From NCBI GenBank assembly GCA_041937175.2, contig CP166615.1, positions 1,120,001 to 1,184,000 of the forward strand: DNA of 64,000 bases, read 5' to 3'. The position numbers and the translations under genes were made by a program. Shown here piece by piece: positions 4,088-61,261 of the stretch (the first letter of the stretch is position 1; every line of letters starts with the position of its first letter). The notes beneath the pieces were generated by a model, which searched no databases, had not been told where the DNA came from, and was given only the letters and a program-made list of their open reading frames with translations. Source of the stretch: Limnothrix sp. BL-A-16. GTDB taxonomy: Bacteria; Cyanobacteriota; Cyanobacteriia; CACIAM-69d.

Positions 4088-4113
4088 GAACGCTTCTGGA
4101 CAACAAATTAAAA

Positions 4114-4638
4114 GGAGAGGCAGGACGTAAGCCGGGTTCTGTCCTCAATTGGCCTCGGAGCACAGCAAGCCGCACGCCAAGGGCCAATCAATGGGCGGTT
4201 ATCTATCTGGGACGATCGTTACCGATCGCCTCAAGCGGTTCTCAAAGCGGGACAGGAAAAAGACCAACCCTCGTCCCTCACCTTGCTTCCGGCCGGGGTT
4301 TACCGAGCCAGCACCTCTCGATGCTGCTGGTGCGCTCTTACCGCACCTTTGCACCCTTACCGAGCCAGAGCCGTTAACAATTCAGTCACCGAAAACAATC
4401 TTCTGCCGCAGCAAAGTGGGACAGTTTGGGTGGGGAATTTTTAAGCGGCTCGGTGGCTCGGCGGTATTTTTCTGTGGCACTATCCTCACGATCGCTCGCA
4501 CTGGGCGTTACCCAGCAAGCCTGGTCTTTCGGAAGCCCGGACTTTCCTCAGATGACCACCGATCGTCCCTTGAACCAGCCAGAGCTAGCCCAAGCAAGAT
4601 CCGGCTGATCATCCGCAACCGCCTCGCCTACACTCTCC
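4114..4638 (-). ncRNA. rnpB: RNase P RNA (type A)
   Basis: The reverse strand contains GAGGAAAGTCCGGGCT, GTGCCACAGAAA, GGTGCAAAGGTGCGGTAAGAGCGCACC, GGTAAACCCCGG and ACAGAACCCGGCTTA. The 5' and 3' ends are complementary (P1). Ends are approximate. Confidence 0.97.
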
Positions 4639-4884
4639 GTCTATCCAGTTTATCGCTTGGTCGCAAAACTGACTCGTGGCCCCGGATGAATGCCCGTCCC
4701 CCATGGATCTCGCACCCCCAAGGGCGATCGCCGTTGCCCCCAAACCGGTTCCCAAAGCCTTAGGCTAGGGCCGCGCTGATGGGCAAACCGTTACTCGACA
4801 ACGGCAAGCCACTCTCAGACTCAGTTACAATCGACTCGGATTCCAACGGATGCGCTGCGATCGCCTCCCGCGACCCCCTCGCCT

Positions 4885-9736: not shown

Positions 9737-10222
9737 GAAAGTTCCGAAAATGAGGGTTGCCGTACGGGTAGCTGGCGCGGAGGCTGGCTTTTGCTCGACC
9801 CGATCCGAGCAAGATTGCAACGCGACTCGATCACAGCCGTTTCAAACAAGCGGGGCGATCGGGGGTCGCTAGGTCGTCGTTGGCTGACTAAGCGCCGATT
9901 TACCATCATCCCCAAGGCTTGGTGTTCTGTCAACTTGTTCTGTTAACCATTTGTTCTATTAGCCATGACTGAACTTAGGCATTGAACTTAGGCATTGAAC
10001 TCATGGCAGATCTGAGCGATCGGCCAATTTCTATTCCCCAATCCATGACCTGACCGGTTCGTGACTGCGCCATTCATGAACTCATCACCCTTCTCCCGAT
10101 TTCCCAGCGCCGGCCTTGATCGATGCTTCAGCGTTTCTCGCATTAGGATCTCCATTAGCATCGCGTCCGATCCAACCTCGATCGCTCCCCACTAGGCTCC
10201 CCAAGCAAGCGCCCAACGGATT

Positions 10223-11935
10223 TTGAATCATCGCTGGCTGGTCAAATTTGGGAACATTGCGCAACCCGGCTCCCGAGGAGAACTGGTCGGGGCCATTATT
10301 TTTGTGGCGATCGCCTACGGACTTGCGGCCTATGTGGCCGTCTCCCTACCAGGTCTGCACCAAATTGGCACAGCGGTTTGGCCGGCGGCCGGCATTGCCC
10401 AAGCGGCCCTGATGTTGGGTGGTTTTCGGCTGTGGCCGGCGATCGCCATTGGCATCAATTTCTATGACCTGATCCACCCGGGAATCACGATTCCCCTGTT
10501 GGGACTGTTTGGCTGCACGGGTGCAACGGTTCAGGCTGTCCTGGGAGTGTGGCTATTTCGGCGGCTGGGGGGCAGCAATGTGTTCGATCGGGTGTCGAAT
10601 GTGCTGAAGTTTTTGGTCAGCAGCGTGCTGATTGCCCCCCAAATTAATTGCACCTGCGGTGTGTTGGCCCTGTGCTTGACCGGTAACTTGCCTTGGTCGG
10701 AGTTTGCAACGGTGCGTTGGGGCTGGTTTTTGGGCGATGCCATGGGCGTATTGGTCTTTGTGCCGCTGATTTTGATGGTGGCCCAACTCCAGCGGCAAGA
10801 TTGGCAACGAATCACGCAACTGCGCCCACATAAAAGCACGCGTCGATCGCTGCTGCGCACCCTCTGGCTCGGGCTATTACTCGGCAGCAGCGGCATCGTC
10901 TTTTGGGCCCAAACGGAGGCGGATATTGCCCGCTATCCTTTGGAATATTTGCCTTTTCCCCTGGTGGTGTGGGCGGGGATGCAGTTTGGGCCAAGGGCCG
11001 CAGCGGTGGGGTCATTTCTGATTTCAGCGATCGCGATCGGGGGCACGGCCTTTGGGATGGGCCCCTTTGTGGCCAAAGCCAGCAGCACCCAACAGGCGGT
11101 GCTGTTTTTGCAGGCCTTTTTGGGTGTAATCACGATTACTTCGATGGTGTTGTCGGCGGCGGAATCCGAGCGCTCCCGCTCGGCGCGATCGCTCGCCGCT
11201 CTCAACCGTGAACTAGAGCAGCGCGTGGCTCGCCGTACCGCCCAACTGGCGGCCCAGACCGAGCGGATCAACGACCTGTTACACAACATCTTGCCCGCTG
11301 GCGTGGCGGAACAACTGGCCAGCGGCTCCCAAACCGTGGCGGAAACCTTTAACGATGTGACTGTTTTGTTTGCGGACATCGTGGATTTCACCAGCTTTGC
11401 CGCCCAGCATCCGCCCACGGTGGTGGTGCAATTCCTGAATGATGTGTTTTGCACCTTCGATGACTTGGTGGAGCAATATGGCCTGGAAAAAATCAAGACG
11501 ATCGGGGATGCCTACATGGTAGTGGGCGGTGTGCCCAAGCCCCGATCGAACAGTGCCTTTGCGATCGCCCATTTAGCCCTGGCCATGCAACAGGCGATCG
11601 GGCAATATCGCAAGCCCGATGGCAGCCCCTTTCGGTTGCGGATCGGGATCCACAGCGGCAGCGCCGTGGCTGGAGTGATTGGCATGAAAAAGCTGGTCTA
11701 TGACCTGTGGGGCGACACGGTGAATGTGGCCAGCCGGATGGAAACCCTGGGGCAGCCGGGCCGAATCCAGGTCAGCCAAGCCGCCTTCGATCGCCTGCAC
11801 AGCTATTTCCACTTGGAGCAACGGGGCACAATTGCTGTGAAGGGCAAAGGCGAAATGATCACCTATTGGTTAATCGGTGAACTCAGCAGCCACCAAGAGT
11901 CAGATCCTGATTTGCATCCACATCCCCCGTCATGA
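10223..11935 (+). CDS. MASE1-domain class III adenylate/guanylate cyclase
   Basis: Multi-TM MASE1 domain (VWPAAGIA, WFLGDAMGVL), a coiled coil, and cyclase motifs VLFADIVDFT, EKIKTIGDAYM and YDLWGDTVNVASRME. Confidence 0.92.
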   Translation: MNHRWLVKFGNIAQPGSRGELVGAIIFVAIAYGLAAYVAVSLPGLHQIGTAVWPAAGIAQAALMLGGFRLWPAIAIGINFYDLIHPGITIPLLGLFGCTGATVQAVLGVWLFRRLGGSNVFDRVSNVLKFLVSSVLIAPQINCTCGVLALCLTGNLPWSEFATVRWGWFLGDAMGVLVFVPLILMVAQLQRQDWQRITQLRPHKSTRRSLLRTLWLGLLLGSSGIVFWAQTEADIARYPLEYLPFPLVVWAGMQFGPRAAAVGSFLISAIAIGGTAFGMGPFVAKASSTQQAVLFLQAFLGVITITSMVLSAAESERSRSARSLAALNRELEQRVARRTAQLAAQTERINDLLHNILPAGVAEQLASGSQTVAETFNDVTVLFADIVDFTSFAAQHPPTVVVQFLNDVFCTFDDLVEQYGLEKIKTIGDAYMVVGGVPKPRSNSAFAIAHLALAMQQAIGQYRKPDGSPFRLRIGIHSGSAVAGVIGMKKLVYDLWGDTVNVASRMETLGQPGRIQVSQAAFDRLHSYFHLEQRGTIAVKGKGEMITYWLIGELSSHQESDPDLHPHPPS

Positions 11936-31226: not shown

Positions 31227-33059
31227 ATGCAGCGATCGAACCTAACCAAACGGAGCCGAACCCTCCTGGCCCAACGGGCCATGACGGGCGAGCGGATCAC
31301 GCTGCGCACCACGGGAAAAGCGGGCGGCGAAGGGGAAATTTATCAGGTTGCGGAAGAACCGAGCCTGCTGGCCAAGATTTATCACCCCGACCAACGATCG
31401 CCCGATCGGGCGGCCAAACTGGCCGCCATGTTGAACGATCCGCCGCTAGATCCGTTGGAACCACCGATTACGATCGCCTGGCCAGTGGATGCGGTGGTGG
31501 TGGATGGGGCGATTGTTGGGTTTTTGATGCCCAAAGCACCCGAAACCCGCCCCCTGCACGAGGTTTACACGCCCAAGATGCGACGGCGCGAGTTGCCGGG
31601 TCTCACCTATCGCTACCTGGTGCGGATGGCTCGCAACCTGGCCCAAGCCGTTGATGTGCTCCATGAACGGGGCTACACGATTGGGGATGTGAACGAGTCC
31701 AACGTGCTGGCCGCGTCCAATGCCCTGGTGACCCTGGTGGATACGGATTCGTTTCAGGTGGTCGATCGCCAACAGCGGCGCACTTTCCGTTGTCCCGTGG
31801 GCAAGCCAGAATATACGCCCCCGGAACTGCAAGGGCGCAACTTTCGAGAGGTCGATCGCACGGCGGCCCAAGACTGCTTTGGGTTGGCGGTGTTGCTCTT
31901 TCAGTTGTTGATGGAGGGAACCCACCCCTTTGACGGCGCTTTTCTGGGATCCGGTGACCCGCCCCTGATTGACCAACGGATTGCGGCCGGGGAATTTCCC
32001 TACAGTGCCCGATCGCCCCGTTGGAAACCCAAGCCGATCGCGCCGCCTTTCGCGGGCCTCGATCCGCAATTGCAAAATCTCTTTCGCCAGGCCTTTGAAA
32101 CCCGCCACCCGGCTGATCGGCCCAGCGCCCGTCAGTGGTTCACCGTTTTGGACAGCGCCGAAAACAACCTCGTGACCTGTAGCGCCAATCCTCACCATAT
32201 CTACTTTGGCCATCAGGGTTCCTGTCCCTGGTGCGATCGGGCGCGACAGTTCCGAGGGCGCGATCCCTTTCCCTCTCCGGCCGCCATCCGGCGCGGCGAG
32301 CATATCCAACTGGCCAAAACGCACCGCAAGGCTCCCCGGGTGGTGACCCCGCCGCCCATCGCCGCCAGCATCCAAACGATTCCCCTGCGCCCCCTGCCGC
32401 CCACCGTCACCGCCCGCAACTATTGGCTGGCTCCCGGCTATTCCCGATCGAGCGCTTGGGTCTCTGCCATTGGGTTGGGCTGCTGTTTTTTGGTCTCCGC
32501 CGCCATCATTGCCAGCCGAGAGGCCCTCGACTTTTCCACCCCCGGAGTCCCCGCCCTCATTCCCCGCGTTCTGACGGCTCGCCCCCCTGTCCTTAGCCCA
32601 GAACAGCAGCGCCTGGCCCTGATCCAATTTGACAGCACCCGCAGCCAAATCGAAGGCCTCACCAATCAACTCACTCAAGAAATGGTGACCCTGATGCAGG
32701 ATCCCGATCGGCCCCTTGTGCGGCTTTCCCGATCGGCCCTCACGGAGCGATCCCAACGGGCGATCGCCTCCGCTCTGGGTAAGCCGGGCCTGTTTTATGG
32801 CAATGGAACCATTTCCGGCTCCTTGCCCCCGGACGGGGAGGCCACCCAAACGGTGCTGCAAATTCAATGGATTGAAGCCATTTCCGAATATCAACGGCGG
32901 ATTTTGGGCGACCAATACGCTTGGGGCTATCTGGATTCCGCCACCGTCCGCCACCTCACGGCCGACTCTCGCCAAATTTTGCTGGACTCGCTCACGCCCG
33001 TGCCCGTGGCGGTTCCCAGCACGCTCACCCAGCCCGATCGCCCCGCCAATCAACCCTAG
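31227..33059 (+). CDS. YegI-like Ser/Thr protein kinase with a Cys-rich knuckle, one TM helix and a C-terminal extracytoplasmic domain
   Basis: GGEGEIY, AKIYH, IAWP, GFLMP, GDVNESN, DTDSFQ, GKPEYTPPELQG, DCFGLA, and CSANPHH...CPWC. TM segment WVSAIGLGCCFLVSAAII. Confidence 0.85.
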   Translation: MQRSNLTKRSRTLLAQRAMTGERITLRTTGKAGGEGEIYQVAEEPSLLAKIYHPDQRSPDRAAKLAAMLNDPPLDPLEPPITIAWPVDAVVVDGAIVGFLMPKAPETRPLHEVYTPKMRRRELPGLTYRYLVRMARNLAQAVDVLHERGYTIGDVNESNVLAASNALVTLVDTDSFQVVDRQQRRTFRCPVGKPEYTPPELQGRNFREVDRTAAQDCFGLAVLLFQLLMEGTHPFDGAFLGSGDPPLIDQRIAAGEFPYSARSPRWKPKPIAPPFAGLDPQLQNLFRQAFETRHPADRPSARQWFTVLDSAENNLVTCSANPHHIYFGHQGSCPWCDRARQFRGRDPFPSPAAIRRGEHIQLAKTHRKAPRVVTPPPIAASIQTIPLRPLPPTVTARNYWLAPGYSRSSAWVSAIGLGCCFLVSAAIIASREALDFSTPGVPALIPRVLTARPPVLSPEQQRLALIQFDSTRSQIEGLTNQLTQEMVTLMQDPDRPLVRLSRSALTERSQRAIASALGKPGLFYGNGTISGSLPPDGEATQTVLQIQWIEAISEYQRRILGDQYAWGYLDSATVRHLTADSRQILLDSLTPVPVAVPSTLTQPDRPANQP

Positions 33060-33101
33060 GGAGCAAGGCCATAGAGTTATGAAAGGGAGTCACGAAAGGA
33101 T

Positions 33102-33276
33102 TAGACCTCTTGCGCGAATCAGCTAATAGCCCTCATCCCCCAACCCCTTCTCCCAAGGGGGGCGAAGGGGAGCCAGAAATCGGGAGTTACGGCGATTTCG
33201 TTGTTGATTTTCAAGTCCCTCTCCCGACTTGGGAGAGGGATTTAGGGTGAGGGTCTTAATTGATGCAAGAGATCTA
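33102..33276 (+). mobile_element. MITE family 2 (about 175 bp), copy A
   Basis: TAGACCTCTTGC ... GCAAGAGATCTA ends, with internal CCCTTCTCCC/CCCTCTCCC...GGGAGAGGG hairpins. Near-identical copies at 48601 and 58634. Confidence 0.9.
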
Positions 33277-34008
33277 TTGATGGATGCTCCCATGCACCGA
33301 GAATGGAGCGCGGCCCAACCGATCGGGAATGGTCGTGAATCCGGGACGGGCGATCGCACCGTGGCCCATGATATCGATCGCCCCATTGCCCCCCAAATCC
33401 CGTAGGGGCGCATCGCCATGCGCCCTCCGGTACGCGAGATCTCCGAGGGCCAATTCGTTTCGATCGATCCTGGCGGAGGGTGTACAGCGGTACGCCCCTA
33501 CCCGATCGCCCCATTGACGGGGAAAACCCGATGCATGATCCCGAGGCGCGATCGCACCGTGGCCCATGATATCGATCGGCCCATTGCCCCCCAAATCCCG
33601 TAGGGGCGCATCGCCATGCGCCCTCCGGTACGCGAGATCTCCGAGGGCCAATTCGTTTCGATCGATCCTGGCGGAGGGCGTACAGCGGTACGCCCCTACC
33701 CGATCGCCCCATTGACGGGGAAACCCCGATGCATGATCCCGAGGCGCGATCGCGCCGCGTCCCATGAATCGATCGGCTGTAGGGTGCATGGGAGTACGGC
33801 CACAGAGTCACGAAACGTTTGATGGATGCTCCCATGCACCGAGAATTGAGCGCGGCCCAACCGATCGGGGATGGTCGTTGAATGCGGGGTGGGTGGCGGT
33901 GCGTGGGAGATCACCGGGAGATGGTTGTTGAATGCGGCATGGGTGGCGGTGCATGGGAGATGAGGGGCAATGGTTATTGACAGCCGAGCGTGCTCCCATG
34001 CACCCTAC
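33277..34008. repeat. GTAG-type REP/REPIN cluster including a 198-bp tandem duplication
   Basis: Tandem units start at 33351 and 33549. Each has GTAGGGGCGCATCGCCATGCGCCC and GGG(T/C)GTACAGCGGTACGCCCCTAC. A second type is GTAGGGTGCATGGGAG (33779) ... CTCCCATGCACCCTAC (to 34008). A 60-bp repeat lies at 33277 and 33819. Confidence 0.85.
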
Positions 34009-37000
34009 GCCTGTCCGTTTGTTTGTTGGTTTCGGATTTGATCAATGGCCCGACGTGAGGTTGCGGCTGATGGTGAACCGATGCGTTCTAGGATTTCGAG
34101 GGAGATTGATAGATCGACCAGACCGGCTTCAATTTGCCCGAGCTTGGTGGCCTTGAGCCAGCCCAGCCATTGCAGCGTCATGGCTTTGCCCTGGGCATTG
34201 CCGATTTGCTCTTTGATTTCCAAGGATTGCTGAAAGAGGGCGATCGCCTGCTCGATCTCCCCCCGGTTGGCGTAGATCCTGCCCAGTTCGTGCAGGGTGG
34301 TGGCTTTGCCCCCGATATTGCCGATTTGCTCTTCGATTTCCAGGGATTGCTGATAGAGGGCGATCGCCTGCTCGATCTCGCCCCGGTTGGCGTAGATCCT
34401 GCCCAGTTCGTGCAGGGTGGCGGCTTTGCCCTGGGCATTGCCGATTTGCTCCTCGATTTCCAGGGATTGCTGATAGAGGGCGATCGCCTGCTCGATCTCC
34501 CCCCGGTTGGCGTAGAGGGTGGCAAGGTTGTGCAGGGTGGTGGCTTTGCCCCCGATATTGCCGATTTGCTCTTCGATTTCCAGGGATTGCTGATAGAGGG
34601 CGATCGCCTGCTCGATCTCGCCCCGGTTGGCGTAGATCCTGCCCAGTTCGTGCAGGGTGGCGGCTTTGCCCTGGGCATTGCCGATTTGCTCCTCGATTTC
34701 CAGGGATTGCTGATAGAGGGCGATCGCCTGCTCGATCTCCCCCCGGTTGGCGTAGAGGGTGGCAAGGTTGTGGATAATCGTGGCTCGGTCGCGGATTTCG
34801 GCTTCGGTGCTGGTAGGGCAGCGATCGAGGGCGGTTTGGTAGTTCGCCAAGGCTGCGGCCACATCCCCGAGTTCTTGTTGCGATCGGGCTAGATTGTGAA
34901 TCACTCGATAATCTGCCGTTAGGGTCAGGTTTTTTTGGCAGAGATCGCGGGCTTCCCGAAAGCGACTGCGTTTAATCCATTGATTGGTAACAGCTTTCGA
35001 GATCGTGGTAGAAATCTCTGATTCTTGGCCCAACAGCGCCAGCCGGTGAATTTCTAGGCGCTGTTCCTCTGTGGAACTGTCCGATTCTTCCCACCAAAGG
35101 CGATAGAGCGTTTGGCAAGCCAGGGCCGCCAACTCCTGGGGCGGGGGGCTGGGCAGATCCAGCGGCAAAATGCGCGGCACTCGCAACTCCCCAGCGGGCG
35201 ATTGCTCCAACAACCCCAGGGCTTGGGCCCGAGCCAGGCGGCTGGCCGCCGCTGGGATGTCCGTCAACAGGGGGTCGATCGCCGCTGGTGGCACGGGCAA
35301 CTCATAGATCGCCGCCCGCTGCAACAGGTGGTGCAAATCTTGATCCACCCAATCCCAGAGGGTGGCGGCCAACACTTGCTCCCGTAGCTCGTCCGGCTGT
35401 TGGGCCAGGCGATCGAGCAGGGCGCTCAGGGTGTCCGGGTCGGGGCGCTCGCTCGCTCCTTGGGGGTCGATCGTGATTTTGCCCGACTCATCCAGCCGAC
35501 CCAAGCCGCTCAGGAGCTGATCGAGCCAGCGCCACAGCCGGGGGTTGCCATCGCCCAACTGCCAAGCCCGCTCCACCAGCGATCGGGGCAACGTCGCGGC
35601 GGGGTTGCTGAAACCCGGCAGCCGTTCCCGCAACTTGCGCGCATCCCCATCCCGAAACCCATCAATCCCCAAGTGCCGCAACCGCAACCGATCGCGCAGG
35701 GCCGGGTCAATGTCGTAGCGGGTGGTGATCAGCAGCTTGTGGGGCTGGTCAAAGGCTTGCCGATCGATGGCCGTGGCGATCGCCTCCAAAATTTCCGCCG
35801 CCGCCGGTTGGAGTTGATAAGTGCCGTTTCGCAGTTCCAGGCAGTTTTCAAAATCATCAAACACCCACAAAAAGGGCGGTTGACCCAGGCGAGCTTGCTG
35901 GTCAAACACACGGACAAGTCGATAAGCCAAGGGATTGCGATCGTCTTCCAGAATTTCCCGTTGCTCTGGGGGAAAATCCCACGCCGTTTCCCGCACAAAC
36001 CGAGGCAAATCCAACCGCCCCACAATCACCACCCGCTGGAATTGGTCGAGCCGATCGCACAGCCGGGCCGCGATGCTGCTTTTGCCCAGGCCGCCCATGC
36101 CCTGGAGCCACACCCCCACCGAGTCGCGATCGCGCAACACCCGCAAGCCCCGCTGCAACCAGCGCCGCCGCCCCACAAACTCCCGCCGGGTCGGCACTTG
36201 CACCGTCTGCCGATTTGGATCGAGAAATTGCCCCACCAGGCTGGCCTTGGGCGCACGCAACCGGCCGGGCGATCGGGGAGCCGTCACCAAGGGGCCGATC
36301 GCCGGGGTCAGGTCGCCCCCCACAAACAACCGCAACAAATACCACTCGGGCGATCGACCCGTTTCCAAGGGCCGCGTCAGCTCCCCATAGGCCACCCGCA
36401 ACGCATCCACGAGCGATCGCCCCTCCGCCAACCCGCGATAGATCGCCGCCGCCGCCGCCGTGGCATCGGTGTCATAGACCGGTCGCCCCCAACCCAACAC
36501 GGCCCGTGCCCCCGCTTGCACCAGCGATCGGGCCATGGCGGGCATCCCGTTGCGCCCTTCCCCGGTCTGACAGCCGGACAAAAACACCAAGGGCGGAAAC
36601 TGTCGCCCCAAGGCTTGGGCAATGTCGGCAGCGGTCGCATCGTGGCGATCGCCCGTTTCCGTTTCCGTAATGAACACCGGCACGGGCGGTTGTTGGCGCT
36701 GATCAATGCCCGCATGGCCGGTCAGGTGCAACAAATCCAACTCGCTGGGATCAAACTGCCCCACCAACCAGCCCAAATCCTCCAGACAGCCGGTTTCTTC
36801 CACGGTCAACCGCATATCCAGGCGATCGGTCGCATCCAAAATCGCCTGCTCTTCGGTTTCAAACCCCAGGGCCACGCCGCCCCCGGTGGGAGCCGCCGCC
36901 ATAAACAGCCCATGCAACGCCCGGTTGCGCCGCTCGATCGGGGTCAGGGGCCGCGCCTCCGCACAAACCCGCACCGGCACAATCCCCGCCGCCACCAAAA

Positions 37001-37361
37001 AGCGATCGCCATCGTGCAGCAACTCCCAAGGCAACCGCCCCAAGTCGGGCCAGCTCGGATCGGTTGGCGCGATCAAGTCGATCGCCAATACCTCGGGCCG
37101 CTGATCCGCCAACTGCCGACTCAACAGCCGATCGCTCCCATCCAGCCAAGCAAACAACTGCCGCCCCAAGGCCAACGCCTCGGCCGGCCCCTGCCGAGGA
37201 TCGAGCGTTCGGTCAAAGAGGCGATCGGCCTGGTCGATCGCCTGGCCCAACTCCGCCACCGGGAGCGATCGGCTCTCGTAGCGATTGGGATTCTCAAAAA
37301 ACCAGCGGAATTCCACCGTATCCGCCGTCAGCGATCGCAACCAAAGGGAGAGCGTCGTCAT
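34005..37361 (-). CDS. CHAT (caspase-like protease) - STAND/NB-ARC-like NTPase - TPR repeat protein
   Basis: CHAT motifs LPWELL, LLHLTGHAG (His) and VFLSGCQTG (Cys). NTPase motifs FVGRR, Walker A GMGGLGKS, Walker B WVFDDFE, LLITTR and GNPR. C-terminal 40-aa TPR repeats. Confidence 0.92.
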   Translation of the reverse strand: MTTLSLWLRSLTADTVEFRWFFENPNRYESRSLPVAELGQAIDQADRLFDRTLDPRQGPAEALALGRQLFAWLDGSDRLLSRQLADQRPEVLAIDLIAPTDPSWPDLGRLPWELLHDGDRFLVAAGIVPVRVCAEARPLTPIERRNRALHGLFMAAAPTGGGVALGFETEEQAILDATDRLDMRLTVEETGCLEDLGWLVGQFDPSELDLLHLTGHAGIDQRQQPPVPVFITETETGDRHDATAADIAQALGRQFPPLVFLSGCQTGEGRNGMPAMARSLVQAGARAVLGWGRPVYDTDATAAAAAIYRGLAEGRSLVDALRVAYGELTRPLETGRSPEWYLLRLFVGGDLTPAIGPLVTAPRSPGRLRAPKASLVGQFLDPNRQTVQVPTRREFVGRRRWLQRGLRVLRDRDSVGVWLQGMGGLGKSSIAARLCDRLDQFQRVVIVGRLDLPRFVRETAWDFPPEQREILEDDRNPLAYRLVRVFDQQARLGQPPFLWVFDDFENCLELRNGTYQLQPAAAEILEAIATAIDRQAFDQPHKLLITTRYDIDPALRDRLRLRHLGIDGFRDGDARKLRERLPGFSNPAATLPRSLVERAWQLGDGNPRLWRWLDQLLSGLGRLDESGKITIDPQGASERPDPDTLSALLDRLAQQPDELREQVLAATLWDWVDQDLHHLLQRAAIYELPVPPAAIDPLLTDIPAAASRLARAQALGLLEQSPAGELRVPRILPLDLPSPPPQELAALACQTLYRLWWEESDSSTEEQRLEIHRLALLGQESEISTTISKAVTNQWIKRSRFREARDLCQKNLTLTADYRVIHNLARSQQELGDVAAALANYQTALDRCPTSTEAEIRDRATIIHNLATLYANRGEIEQAIALYQQSLEIEEQIGNAQGKAATLHELGRIYANRGEIEQAIALYQQSLEIEEQIGNIGGKATTLHNLATLYANRGEIEQAIALYQQSLEIEEQIGNAQGKAATLHELGRIYANRGEIEQAIALYQQSLEIEEQIGNIGGKATTLHELGRIYANRGEIEQAIALFQQSLEIKEQIGNAQGKAMTLQWLGWLKATKLGQIEAGLVDLSISLEILERIGSPSAATSRRAIDQIRNQQTNGQA
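34180..34772. repeat. Five near-identical 120-bp intragenic TPR repeats containing an exact 240-bp higher-order duplication
   Basis: CCGATTTGCTC recurs at 34201, 34321, 34441, 34561 and 34681. About 34290-34532 is identical to 34530-34772. Confidence 0.95.
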
Positions 37362-37515
37362 GGGGAGCGATCCAAACCCAAAATGCTGGCCAAATTCTCT
37401 CCAGTCTAGCCCTCGGTTTTGGGCGATCGCTATGCCCGCAAGGCTTCCGCGATTTTGGTTTGTAGCGTGTTGACCCCATCGGCTAACCGATCAGCTTCGG
37501 TTGTTTACCTAGGGC

Positions 37516-37553
37516 CGGGATCCCCGCTCTTTCTAGGCGGGGAGGTTAATCAA
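37516..37553. mobile_element. IS200/IS605-type end hairpin remnant (or terminator) downstream of 6S RNA
   Basis: GGGATCCCCGCTCTTTCTAGGCGGGGAGGTTAA, resembling the CCCCGC-loop-GCGGGG subterminal hairpins of IS605-group ends. Confidence 0.5.
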
Positions 37554-37579
37554 CAATTGGTTGAAGCAAATTCTGAGGA

Positions 37580-37793
37580 GTTGGGTTAACCGCAAATGCC
37601 GTCTTGCCTCAGCTTCCGACCTGGAAAAACCAGGTGGGTACTCTTGTCTCCGTTTAAAGTTTCTGAGTTAACAAAGCGCCGAAACGCTCGCTCAGTCTAC
37701 TGCCACTAAGACGTTCGGTGAGTCCCCGAATTGGAACAAACATAGATCGCAAAACAATTATTGGCAGTCACCAACATTGCAGCAAAACCCAAC
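37580..37793 (-). ncRNA. ssrS: 6S RNA (SsrS/SsaA)
   Basis: On the minus strand 5' GTTGGGTTTTGCTGCAATGTTG pairs with 3' CGGCATTTGCGGTTAACCCAAC (closing stem). Contains GAAACTTTAAACGG..GTACCCACCTGG, a 6S-like 3' central bubble, and has an upstream extended -10. Confidence 0.85.
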
Positions 37794-37797
37794 CGGA

Positions 37798-37806
37798 ATT
37801 ATAGCA
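37798..37806 (-). promoter_or_regulatory. Extended -10 promoter (TGCTATAAT) for 6S RNA
   Basis: Consensus TGnTATAAT a few nt upstream of the predicted 5' end. Confidence 0.75.
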
Positions 37807-37954
37807 AACAGTTTTAGGATTACGATCGCCCCGGGAGCACTAGTTTTGGCCCTGAGTCGATCGCCCGCAGGGCCCCATGAAGCGAGCCAGTAACCCCTAG
37901 CCAGAACCACTCAGGAACCGGATCAGGGCGATCGCCCCGATCTGCGGCTAGTTC

Positions 37955-39757
37955 TCAAGAAGGCTCCGTCAAAAGCTTCACCAACTCTAGTTCTTGGGCG
38001 CGGTGGCCATCTTGGAAAATGGGTACTGGCCGTTCAATGCCCTTGAACCGAAATTCTCCCATTTGCACCCAATTCATTTTGCGCGACACCAAGTCATAGG
38101 TATTGGCGCTGATGATGCATTGACCCACCGGACAAATCGCCTCCATCCGGGCCGCCAGGTTCACCGCGCCGCCCAAGACTGTGTAATCCATCCGTTGGGA
38201 GCTGCCCACATCCCCCACCACGGCCCGACCGCTGTTGATGGCAATCCGTAGTTGCAAATGCTCGCCCAACACGTTTCGTTTATTTAGATCGTCCAAGCGC
38301 TCCAGCATTCGCCGGGCCGCAATCACAGCGCGATCGGCATGATCCGGTTGTGGTTCCGGCGCACCAAAAAAGGCCATGATGCAATCGCCAATGAACTTAT
38401 CGAGGGTTCCTCCAAGGGCAAACACCTCTTGCAGCATTTCTTCAAAAAAGCGGTTCAACAGATCCGCCACCTCCGCCGGACTCAGGCGCTCCGAAAGGGC
38501 CGTAAACCCGACAATATCCGCAAACAAAATGCTGAGTTCCCCGTCAGTGGTGGGAATCCGGCCATCCTCGTGGGTGCCAGCAGCGATCATCTGTTGCACC
38601 ACCGCAGGCGAGTGATAGCGCTCTAGCTTTTGGCACAGGCGCTCTTCTTCCTGAAGCTTGCGGGTGAGCAACCACCGTTGAACACTGGCAGCCACGAGGT
38701 TGGCCAACGCCGAAAAGAAACTGAGATCGTCTTCGCCCTCTTGCACCCAACTTTCGGAGGACAGGTTGGCATCGGCGTAGAGTACGCCGACCACTTTGTC
38801 TTCGTTCCAAAGGGGCACGGCCATGGCGCTGCGGATGCCCTTATAGAGAATGCTTTGTTCTGCGCCAAACCGTTCGTCGGCTTGGGCATCGGCCGTTTGC
38901 AGGGCAATTTTTTCCTTGAAAACTTTTTGGCAGATGCTTTGGCTGATCCAACCGCTGTTGAGGGTGAGGTCGCGGGCCCGTTCGGTTTCGCGGGCGGCCG
39001 CGTTCAGCAGTTGCAGTTGGCCATTGCCTTCCACATCCACCAACAGGGCCAGGCGCTCAATGTTGGTGAGATAGCGAAACACCACTTCTTGCACTTGGGA
39101 GAAGATGGCGTTGCTGCTGGCGGCGGAGGTGAGGCCTTTGGCGATTTCTACGAGATCGCGCAGGCGGGCAATGGTGCGATCGCGCTCATAAAGACTGTCG
39201 CCGCTGCCTTCGCTGGTGCGGAGCCACTGTTCTTTGAGGTCACTGGCATCGCGTGAAATTCGCATTTTGCCATCGGCCGTGGCATCAATCAGGGGCAGCT
39301 TGACCAGATTGGGCCGCACCACGGAAACGGTGGGCGGCAAAACCTCGGGGTTTAAGGGAACCTGCACCCGCTGGGAATAGACGGCTTTGGGCCCTTGGGG
39401 CGATTGGCGCGATCGGGTGATGGTGGGATTCGTGACCGCGCTGGCCGTGCCCACCCCTGCCAGCAGAATCGTGATACAAACATTTTCGATATAGATTCGA
39501 TCGCCGTGGGCGATGGGGGTTGGCTGTTGGAGGGGGGTTTGGTTCAGGCGTGTGCCGTTTTTGCTTTGCAGGTCTTCAACCATCCAGGGACTAGCCCGAT
39601 CGACGCGGCTAATTCGGGCATGGTGTCGCGACACGCCATAGGGAGAAAGGGGCAGCTCGCAATCACTGGCCCGCCCGATCGTCACGGAGTCGGTTTCCAC
39701 GGGAATCAGTCGATCGGGGCTACCGGGAACCTGAAGGCGTAATTGGATCTCAGCCAT
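37955..39757 (-). CDS. FHA-GAF-class III adenylate cyclase (CyaD-like architecture)
   Basis: FHA (IGRASDC, VSRHHA, DLQSKNGT), GAF (IRSAMAVPL...GVLYAD) and cyclase (LFADIVGFT, DKFIGDCIMA, YTVLGGAVNLAARME). Confidence 0.93.
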   Translation of the reverse strand: MAEIQLRLQVPGSPDRLIPVETDSVTIGRASDCELPLSPYGVSRHHARISRVDRASPWMVEDLQSKNGTRLNQTPLQQPTPIAHGDRIYIENVCITILLAGVGTASAVTNPTITRSRQSPQGPKAVYSQRVQVPLNPEVLPPTVSVVRPNLVKLPLIDATADGKMRISRDASDLKEQWLRTSEGSGDSLYERDRTIARLRDLVEIAKGLTSAASSNAIFSQVQEVVFRYLTNIERLALLVDVEGNGQLQLLNAAARETERARDLTLNSGWISQSICQKVFKEKIALQTADAQADERFGAEQSILYKGIRSAMAVPLWNEDKVVGVLYADANLSSESWVQEGEDDLSFFSALANLVAASVQRWLLTRKLQEEERLCQKLERYHSPAVVQQMIAAGTHEDGRIPTTDGELSILFADIVGFTALSERLSPAEVADLLNRFFEEMLQEVFALGGTLDKFIGDCIMAFFGAPEPQPDHADRAVIAARRMLERLDDLNKRNVLGEHLQLRIAINSGRAVVGDVGSSQRMDYTVLGGAVNLAARMEAICPVGQCIISANTYDLVSRKMNWVQMGEFRFKGIERPVPIFQDGHRAQELELVKLLTEPS

Positions 39758-48600: not shown

Positions 48601-48775
48601 GAGACCTCTGGCGCAAATTAGCTAACAGCCCTCATCCCCCAACCCCTTCTCCCAAGGAGGGCGAAGGGGAGCCAGAAATCGGGAATAGCGGCGATTTCGT
48701 TGTTGGTTGTCAAGTCCCTCTCCCAAGTCGGGAGAGGGATTTAGGGTGAGGGTTTTGATTGATGCAAGAGGTCTA
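48601..48775 (+). mobile_element. MITE family 2, copy B
   Basis: AGACCTCTGGC ... TGCAAGAGGTCTA, near-identical to 33102-33276. Confidence 0.9.
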
Positions 48776-58624: not shown

Positions 58625-58933
58625 GAGGATCTTTAGACCTCTTGCATCAATCAAGACCCTCACCCTAAATCCCTCTCCCAAGTCGGGAGAGGGACTTGAA
58701 AATCAACAACGAAATCGCCGTAACTCCCTATTTCTGGCTCCCCTTCGCCCCCCCCTTGGGAGAAGGGGTTGGGGGATGAGGGCTGTTAGCTGATTCGTGC
58801 AGGAGGTCTATTGAAAGGCTGAAACTGCTAACTTTTGGTTCTCATCAACCAATAGAGACAAGGGGCTTAAGCCCCTTGCCCCCACGATCGCTAGTACTTT
58901 GTAAGTCCCCCAATTTGCTTTTCAGACATCCTC
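58625..58933. mobile_element. MITE family 1 copy whose left end is interrupted by a family 2 MITE
   Basis: TGA|GAGGATCTT-[insert]-TTGAAAGG ... palindrome at 58859-58878 ... CTTTTCAGACATCCTC|TAA. The reverse complement aligns with the first part of 14529-14720. Confidence 0.75.
58634..58810 (-). mobile_element. MITE family 2, copy C (inverted)
   Basis: TAGACCTCTTGCA ... TGCAGGAGGTCTA, the reverse complement of copies A and B. Confidence 0.9.
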
Positions 58934-60970: not shown

Positions 60971-61261
60971 AAAACAATCCAGGGTACAGGAGTTGAACCT
61001 GTCTGAGGCGAATTATGAGTTCGCTGCCTAAACCGCTCGGCCAACCCTGGAAAATGTCGGAGACCCAATGCTCAGCGATAGGTTTTGAGGGTGGTCTATC
61101 GCTTTTGGAGAGTCGTGTGAGTTTACACTCGTCATTAATTTTGCCATTGGCCGCTAGTTTGGGCAATATTCTTGGATAGAGTTTGAATGGCTTGAGTGAT
61201 CAGCCAGCCGCCATCTGCTCTGGATCCCTCAACCTCTCTCAAGTAATCTTCATCAACTGCC

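Follow-up and report, generated by a model that had tools for sequence, protein, structure and literature searches.

The gene described here lies in a 64,000-nucleotide stretch of DNA from the cyanobacterium Limnothrix sp. BL-A-16 (contig CP166615.1, positions 1,120,001 to 1,184,000), which was analyzed as a whole and is called the window; coordinates refer to it unless another contig or locus is named. The gene occupies 34005..37361 on the minus strand, starts with ATG according to the open reading frame (ORF) list and its translation, and encodes a protein of 1118 amino acids (aa) in which a CHAT protease is followed by an NB-ARC-like STAND NTPase and a tetratricopeptide repeat (TPR) sensor. 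The ORF is the longest in the region, its translation is free of stops, and homologues begin to align at residue 1-4 of the protein. An ORF of 669 aa on the opposite strand (35400-37409) overlaps the gene and is taken as a by-product of the high GC content.

Of the 8000 candidates scored in a search with residues 1-800, 520 proteins had E ≤ 1e-3, and among the matches listed the homologues cover these residues almost fully; this number of homologues and their coverage put the architecture far above chance. Four close database relatives share 94, 90, 88, and 86% identity with the protein and are 1117, 995, 1030, and 1075 aa long, and beyond them the identity drops to about 41-45%. The named proteins among the matches listed are all cyanobacterial (from Nostoc, Calothrix, Coleofasciculus, Scytonema, and others) and are annotated as "tetratricopeptide repeat", "CHAT domain-containing", or "NB-ARC domain-containing" proteins.

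Domain architecture of the protein

The CHAT module, which has a caspase fold, comprises residues 1-375 (36237..37361, minus strand; limits from Pfam and the domain model) and includes a conserved N-terminal subdomain (residues 1-95). The Pfam CHAT profile (PF12770) matched residues 96-332 with an E-value of 4.1e-19 and 69.6 bits, against a cut-off of 24. Residue invariance was counted in a main alignment of 37 homologues, where H212, G215, H216, S262, G263, and C264 are the same in all 37 sequences; an alignment of residues 1-375 likewise keeps His212, His216, and Cys264 in 21 of 21. The codons of the two histidines lie at 36726-36728 and 36714-36716 and that of the catalytic Cys264 at 36570-36572, all on the minus strand. 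Presumably H216, which follows the invariant G215 in a G-H-A motif, is the likelier catalytic His.

When residues 1-375 were modelled alone, the predicted local distance difference test score (pLDDT) was 84.4 and the predicted TM-score (pTM) 0.89. Foldseek matched this model best to the TPR-CHAT protein Csx29 of Craspase (7zoq_A, E 9.7e-10, TMq 0.61), then to separase, the CHAT domain of DdvA, and SAVED-CHAT, while caspases and gingipain gave weaker matches. The likeness to these CHAT proteins is one of fold (E 1e-9 to 3e-8 over about 373 columns), as their sequence identity to the window CHAT domain is 10-17%; they are activated by Cas7-11/RNA, securin release, a membrane signal, or a cyclic nucleotide, and none of them by a fused STAND NTPase. 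Searching the solved structures with the CHAT profile found 8rot_B only, with an E-value of 0.061. With a profile match above the cut-off, a predicted caspase-like fold, and conserved His and Cys residues, the window protein fits the CHAT/caspase-fold group of clan CD.

The NTPase covers residues 386-800 (34962..36206, minus strand) and was delimited from its motifs, the alignment, the family profile, and fold matches. It contains Walker A GMGGLGKS (421), Walker B DDFE (502-505), TTR (545-548), GNPRL (605-609), and a helical/winged-helix part, with the helical region 572-800 present in the model. The whole Walker A (G421-S428), D502-D503-F504-E505, T546, R548, and D604-L609 are invariant in the 37 homologues. 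Residues 368-794 taken alone gave P-loop matches under the threshold only (NACHT, E 4.6e-4; AAA_16, 4.4e-3; NB-ARC, 0.11), so the STAND identity rests on the family. Scanned one by one with Pfam at E ≤ 1e-3, the homologues matched CHAT in 37 of 37 cases, NB-ARC in 32, AAA_16 in 33, and nSTAND1 in 11. A profile of the NTPase made from 20 sequences and run against the PDB had Apaf-1 as its best match (E 2.6e-4), together with the plant NLRs ADR2, Sr35, Roq1, and NRC1; these matches are weak and cover the P-loop core only (profile positions about 8-120). The window protein thus has the motif set of the STAND NB-ARC clade, from Walker A and an acidic DDxE Walker B to the sensor-1 Arg and a GxP-like motif, together with a helical/winged-helix domain and a repeat sensor. 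In comparison with Apaf-1, its sensor is a TPR array and not a beta-propeller, and a caspase-like domain replaces the CARD, as it does in bacterial variants presented in a recent preprint (bioRxiv 10.64898/2026.01.04.697583).

The AlphaFold2 model of the whole protein had a mean pLDDT of 81.9 and a pTM of 0.49, and this pTM leaves the arrangement of the domains uncertain. Its top Foldseek match was the archaeal STAND-TPR protein PH0952 (6mfv_A, E 8.4e-15), and the remaining ones were nearly all TPR proteins among the matches listed. The whole-protein profile, run against solved structures, gave TPR proteins only in the best 60 shown, and residues 1-800 used as a single sequence matched nothing meaningful among solved structures.

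An initial annotation, made from the letters of the DNA, had described one 1118-aa ORF with a His/Cys dyad, STAND motifs, and TPRs, arranged as effector-STAND-TPR like the NLR- and Avs-type sensors. This description was borne out: the six motifs that it named occur in one copy each (HLTGH at 212, LSGC at 261, GMGGLGKS at 421, FDDFE at 501, ITTR at 545, GNPR at 605), the catalytic residues are invariant, and Pfam, the alignment, the fold matches, and the profile matches to Apaf-1 and plant NLRs agree on the architecture.

The TPR array and selection on the gene

Residues 801-1118 (34008..34961, minus strand; Pfam TPR families and model) form a TPR array which is hypervariable among close relatives. 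Many Pfam TPR families match over residues about 820-1060 (TPR_12, E 1e-39), and in the model about 19 helices, or about nine TPR pairs, follow one another over residues 742-1117 with a pLDDT of about 90-96. At the DNA level, Tandem Repeats Finder reported near-identical tandem repeats at 34181..34756 (minus strand) that correspond to five TPR units of 40 aa, with a period of 120 nt in 4.8 copies at 90% matches and a period of 240 nt in 2.5 copies at 96% matches.

When the protein was compared with five members of its clade, residues 1-798 were 86-95% identical, against 45-85% for the TPR part, in which 3-123 gap columns were needed; for the clade member P0002 the two values are 94.8% and 60.3%. 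The repeat number of the array also differs between close relatives. One contig from run X9 is about 96% alike over 35339-38000, and another contig spans both flanks of the TPR region with an unlike middle. The genome holds 14 TPR loci that resemble the window array. CHAT-domain matches number 16 in it, and it has several more STAND-TPR genes.

An all-in-one effector-NOD-repeat architecture, near-identical internal repeats, and a repeat number that varies from strain to strain are features of the window gene, and its TPR repeats may be comparable in this to the repeat dynamics of fungi. Judged from these alignments, so fast and indel-rich a turnover of the TPRs would be easier to explain by an arms race than by an endogenous ligand that stays the same.

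The ratio of nonsynonymous to synonymous substitution rates (dN/dS) was estimated pairwise by the Nei-Gojobori method with L063 and L062 only, the two closest metagenomic relatives. Against L063, it is 0.17 for the N-terminal subdomain, 0.23 for CHAT, 0.22 for STAND, and 0.22 for codons 1-800 (dS 0.34), and it rises to 0.49 in the TPR part, which has 42 gap columns; against L062 it is 0.19 over 430 codons. These values indicate that the CHAT and STAND domains are under purifying selection; together with the TPR value, this is the mark of an enzyme that is kept intact while its sensor changes fast.

The EACC1-like partner gene and the history of the locus

A two-gene system with comparable parts is the EACC1-caspase "System 4" of Kaur, Burroughs, Iyer, and Aravind (2020, eLife; PMC7159879). 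As outlined in that paper, it consists of a 5' EACC1 gene and a 3' gene of the caspase superfamily. EACC1 has short alpha+beta flanks around one conserved transmembrane helix, in which small residues form an unusual patch (a Gly-rich center), while the peptidase is N-terminal and can be joined on its C-terminal side by any of up to 50 different domains, STAND NTPases and repeats among them. The system is prevalent in actinobacteria, sporadic in proteobacteria, and linked to a multicellular habit. A preprint by Evans et al. (bioRxiv 10.1101/2025.11.14.688446) places EACC1-caspase modules in cyanobacteria as well and describes EACC1 and caspase-Avs12 (KrAvs12) of Ktedonobacter racemifer, for which co-expression with a phage tail connector is toxic. 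The toxicity requires EACC1 and the catalytic Cys; the KrAvs12 protease cleaves EACC1 into two, the C-terminal fragment is toxic, and cleaved EACC1 permeabilizes liposomes. Phage-protein triggers have been assigned to Avs7-21, and caspase-bearing Apaf-1-like proteins reported from cyanobacteria, in bioRxiv 10.64898/2026.01.04.697583; according to Dyrka et al. (bioRxiv 10.1101/2020.01.06.895854), the NLR-like proteins of multicellular bacteria frequently carry CHAT at their N terminus.

The window protein resembles System 4 in its N-terminal CHAT peptidase with a His/Cys dyad, in its variable C-terminal region, here made of an NB-ARC-like NTPase and TPRs, and in that a 5' gene in its relatives encodes a small protein whose single helix is Gly-rich at the center. 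It differs in that no 5' EACC1 gene was found at the window locus or in the genome, and in that the cyanobacterial partner family lies mostly under the Pfam EACC1 cut-off. KrAvs12, which has EACC1 upstream, is likewise a caspase-like protease fused to a STAND sensor, and the two are likened by architecture only. Its catalytic Cys is residue 152, as opposed to 264 in the window protein, which has an extra N-terminal subdomain, and the window genome is without an EACC1 to cleave. By analogy, KrAvs12 is the mechanistic model for the family of the window protein.

The partner gene came to light from an analysis of homologue neighborhoods, which the initial annotation had advised. About 13-19 kb around 20 orthologues were taken and the neighbors clustered, and the standout family was an ORF of about 107 aa on the same strand, upstream of the protease gene. 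A profile of this small protein, made from 12 aligned sequences and run over all related loci, located an EACC1-like gene upstream in 28 of 32 related cyanobacterial genomes. Among the 20 long loci the partner is present in 18, at a distance from the protease gene of -130 to 1442 nt, with 15 gaps of 309 nt or less. No partner was found in the genomes G388, G251, G017, and G040; in the last two its absence is weak, because the upstream DNA searched was only about 1.4-1.5 kb.

The central helix of the partner is hydrophobic and Gly-rich in its middle (consensus ATIVGIVGGTxAIAEQIRKWY), with a short segment N-terminal to it and another segment on the C-terminal side. It is called EACC1-like because of this helix layout and because distant representatives match the Pfam EACC1 family (PF19953). 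The cut-off of that family, 23.6 bits, was reached by none of the 12 aligned partners, two of which matched weakly (best E 0.026). A database search with the partner yielded 776 matches at E ≤ 1e-3 among 8000 scored candidates, and the best 120 of the 776 carried no precomputed Pfam domain. An exhaustive profile search gave 241 representatives (50% identity) at E ≤ 1e-3. Among 51 distant representatives, 11 matched PF19953 at E < 0.01, as the sole family listed for each and with most of the model covered, and two exceeded the curated cut-off. PF19953 was assigned to 10% of the members of the partner's neighbor cluster in the ESM-Atlas, which is a lead only. A complex prediction for the CHAT domain of a relative with its own EACC1-like protein had a score of 0.01 (mark 0.32) and weighs neither way. 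Members of the family (e.g., L041:7784-8110) are annotated as "hypothetical protein" and occasionally mislabelled. Neither a clade lacking EACC1 nor the cyanobacterial family of small proteins as such was found described in our literature search.

Run with the partner profile, the six frames of the window contain no EACC1-like ORF, and the whole genome of 4.56 Mb contains no such gene at E ≤ 1. With the HMMER filters off, the best E-value of the profile over 63,375 six-frame pieces of the genome was 1.1, and PF19953 reached at best 13.1 bits in the whole genome. Similarly, there is no EACC1 beside L063 (90% identity) and L062 (96%), where the 3' end of proS lies upstream instead. The initial annotation had stated that no substrate gene is adjacent and that the target could not be named. 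The first part stands, as the window and neighborhood searches agree on it; the second holds for the window gene and gives way in the relatives, where a candidate substrate gene sits directly upstream. Its proposal that the locus is the best candidate for an uncharacterized system does not hold, since this family represents, in cyanobacteria, the EACC1-caspase system already described. The two-gene kind of this protease family is known; the EACC1-less clade is new, and the missing substrate is the interesting part.

The history of the locus can be read from what lies upstream of the gene. A remnant of proS (prolyl-tRNA synthetase-like), about the last 50 nt, occupies 37430..37483 on the minus strand and was recognized because positions 9872-10129 of locus L011 match window positions 37483-37233. 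The remnant marks the breakpoint of a rearrangement, immediately before the promoter region. The genome's own proS is at C1:1415450-1417243, 258 kb away, with a changed 3' end (an ORF of 629 aa versus 600, 96% identical over residues 1-598). L011, which belongs to Limnothrix redekei, was the single related locus from a search of genome contigs. There, a 600-aa proS-like ORF comes right before the same promoter region, which leads into the first 43 codons of the protease gene and then TGA, 136 unrelated bases, and a convergent kinase gene, so that window 33060-37232 is missing. In L063, the proS 3' end directly precedes an intact gene of 1152 aa, and in L062 a 254-aa ORF of the short-chain dehydrogenase type (SDR; 147-1093, opposite strand) lies between the proS end and the promoter. 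On the evidence of these three loci and the window remnant, the order in the lineage was proS and then the protease gene, with no small partner; the later events were a rearrangement in the window genome and a deletion in L. redekei. Residues 1-800 match at E ≤ 1e-30 in 53 of 401 sampled genomes of the class (38 of 169 genera) and in none of the seven other genomes of the window's own family. Together with the stub in L. redekei, this is not the strict vertical conservation in a housekeeping context that the initial annotation had named as counting against an immune role.

In our view, the gene probably encodes a functional NLR-like sensor-protease which derives from an EACC1-type two-gene suicide system, has lost its substrate, and now acts on something else. 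Because the EACC1-like partner is gone from the lineage, another substrate would be needed, whether unlinked, host-wide, or the protease itself. It is highly improbable that the system is still a two-component one whose substrate or effector is encoded elsewhere or belongs to a family beyond the profiles used. Purifying selection with no visible partner would be accounted for in this way, the residues changed behind the catalytic Cys could point to a new substrate, and partners in trans are conceivable because of the CHAT matches and STAND-TPR genes elsewhere in the genome. However, no candidate emerged, the genome searches with both profiles were empty, and across L011, L062, L063, and the window, conservation beside the gene is limited to the proS end, which the window has lost upstream, and the kinase or repeats downstream.

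That the gene is instead a decaying relic, functionless since the loss of its EACC1-like effector and on its way out of the lineage, is distinctly unlikely. The partner is absent from both locus and genome, the body of the L. redekei gene is deleted, rearrangement scars and dispersed repeats flank the locus, and 12 otherwise invariant CHAT positions are changed, all of which agree with decay; yet the frame is intact in the window, in L063, and in the four database relatives (995-1117 aa), every catalytic residue is kept, and dN/dS is about 0.2 over 800 codons. Split or stop-bearing orthologues in five other genomes (G059:C1:3989749-3991924, G340:C1:6014020-6016109, G357:C67:64916-67601, G219:C256, and G298:C545) speak for the same explanation and suggest recurrent pseudogenization or split-gene forms in the protease family, against which the TPR array of the window clade has been remodelled in frame and not degraded.

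Genomic surroundings and role of the protease

Immediately upstream, a 6S RNA gene (37583-37788, minus strand; Rfam RF00013, 79.7 bits, full model) lies between an FHA-GAF-adenylate cyclase gene and the CHAT gene, about 220 nt before the start of the latter and on the same strand; read-through from the 6S RNA into the CHAT gene is possible. Contigs of the RNA-seq metatranscriptome X2, 95-99% alike, extend over parts of the coding region and the 6S RNA; most of the TPR part is among the stretches that they leave bare, and the overlap is no sign of transcription. The cyclase (37955-39757, minus strand) was considered as a functional partner and rejected, as its adjacency is absent from L011 and L063, where proS is upstream. 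The Ser/Thr kinase gene at 31227-33059 was discarded as well, being convergent and kept where the protease gene is deleted. The interval 3' of the gene (33060..34004, no strand assigned) is a non-coding mosaic of dispersed repeats which is absent, with the gene body, from L. redekei L011; a 197-aa ORF within it (33242-33835) is no partner but a spurious reading of 198-nt tandem repeats and dispersed elements.

Other neighbors encode a Mur ligase-like protein, a T2SSE-family (type II/IV secretion) ATPase, a kinase, 6PGD, malic enzyme, and leucyl aminopeptidase, and the 48 other ORFs of the window gave generic domain-level matches only in PADLOC. The FHA-GAF-cyclase and a second class III nucleotide cyclase (10223-11935, plus strand) both match the PADLOC PycC models through nothing more than the cyclase domain common to them, and neither has a Pycsar effector next to it. 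Recent horizontal acquisition is unsupported by composition: the GC content of the gene is 62.5% versus 55.2% for the genome, but its neighbors have 61-62%. The density of HIP1 is 3.3 per kb in the gene versus 1.15, and the GC content at third codon positions (GC3) is host-like.

A regulated protease with a role outside defense, in endogenous signalling or in stress or developmental cell death of a filamentous cyanobacterium, with an endogenous TPR ligand, would suit these chromosomal surroundings (6S RNA, FHA-GAF-cyclase, Ser/Thr kinase; no defense island). The high HIP1 density and host-like GC3, which argue for long residence, would suit it too. EACC1-type systems correlate with a multicellular habit (PMC7159879), and stress-response roles are raised for EACC1-DnaK fusions (10.1101/2025.11.14.688446). 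Such a role is nevertheless unlikely, because the cyclase/6S adjacency is specific to the rearrangement in the window genome, the TPR array turns over quickly, with many indels, in strains that are 86-95% identical elsewhere, and the distribution of the gene is patchy.

Two dispersed repeats occur in the window. The first resembles a miniature inverted-repeat transposable element (33345-33740), with a conserved core of about 125 nt and terminal inverted repeats of ~31 nt that each contain a GC-rich hairpin. It is found at seven loci of the genome, the others being on C1 near 610468, 745607, 3189105/3189738, 2485578, 4319713/4320457, and 4475393. Four of the seven (the window and three NB-ARC/TPR genes) are 29-1412 nt from the 3' end of one of the 14 TPR-like loci, a tie to NLR-like genes that seems too strong for chance. 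The second repeat, of about 180 nt, has about 20 genome copies of 76-99% identity (most 88-99%), three of them in the window (33102-33279, about 48602-48775, and about 58634-58810). Farther away, the window contains an RNase P RNA (4113-4635, minus strand; RF00010, 239.6 bits), overlapped by a 204-aa ORF (4149-4763, plus strand) that is probably spurious, and a tRNA (60978-61050, minus strand).

If the window protein is a functional sensor-protease derived from an EACC1-type system, as we prefer, it would work as follows. The hypervariable TPR array would bind a ligand, most likely a protein of an invader, and this would free the NB-ARC-like NTPase for nucleotide exchange and oligomerization. 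Oligomerization would join the N-terminal CHAT domains and turn on the His/Cys protease. The next step in the relatives would be cleavage of the EACC1-like protein encoded upstream, to release a membrane-permeabilizing fragment, as in abortive infection, and in the Limnothrix lineage the protease may act on an unlinked, host-wide, or own substrate. In this scheme we infer the ligand, the oligomerization, the immune role, and the present substrate.

Several observations weigh against this reading. No activity, ligand, or phenotype is known for the window protein or any cyanobacterial member of its family, and the neighborhood is of the housekeeping and signalling kind, not a defense island. A check with PADLOC and profile models, which had been recommended at the outset, recovered CHAT and TPR families (in PADLOC, TPR, a weak SAVED_CHAT match at 1.7e-5, BovA, and C3a156 only), but no Avs or NLR model of PADLOC-DB v2.0.0, a library from 2023 that predates Avs7-21, matched the protein, and NB-ARC (12.2 bits versus a cut-off of 23.5) and NACHT (20.5 versus 26.7) stayed under the threshold. 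The NB-ARC shortfall would reflect the divergence of the window clade, because most homologues match NB-ARC and the family profile finds Apaf-1. The selection estimate comes from two pairwise comparisons only. Of the 63 partner-family sequences scanned (12 and 51), only two exceed the PF19953 cut-off, so the EACC1-like identity of the family is a transitive and mostly sub-threshold link. In a quick, unrooted tree, the longest internal branch, with 1.03 substitutions per site, is the one that carries the window clade, and for this reason it is only as something we infer that the partner was lost rather than never having been there.

The window clade, moreover, departs from its relatives in the catalytic module: 12 of the 72 CHAT positions at which 19 relatives do not vary are altered in it (L18F, I38L, E46D, W79L, A95D/E, W132V, V161G, G271N, P274L, S275A, T324A, and Y346F; P274L in one of two clade members only). 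Three of them (271, 274, 275) sit close behind the catalytic Cys. In the NTPase, five of 50 otherwise invariant positions are altered. These clade-specific CHAT changes could reflect re-targeting or the onset of decay. In a more specific and tentative form, which is possible though rather doubtful, the clade would have kept an NLR-like caspase that has lost its dedicated pore-forming substrate under purifying selection, with a sensor of the arms-race type, killing or signalling through promiscuous proteolysis of host proteins or through a newly recruited unlinked substrate, and the changes G271N, P274L, and S275A and those at W79 and W132 would mark the re-targeting.

The "uncharacterized system" of the window has thus become a defined and testable case. 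On the side of annotation, cyanobacteria hold a large EACC1-like family that is mostly missed by the Pfam model, and their annotation would gain from recognition of this family. Protease-plus-effector modules are now seen as a logic that bacterial immunity often uses, and their pairing has been described as conserved. An orphan clade raises the question of what else such proteases cut; the orphan and its EACC1-linked relatives make a simple comparative system. If the preferred reading is true, the Limnothrix-type clade would be a natural experiment in which a sensor-protease works through a different route.

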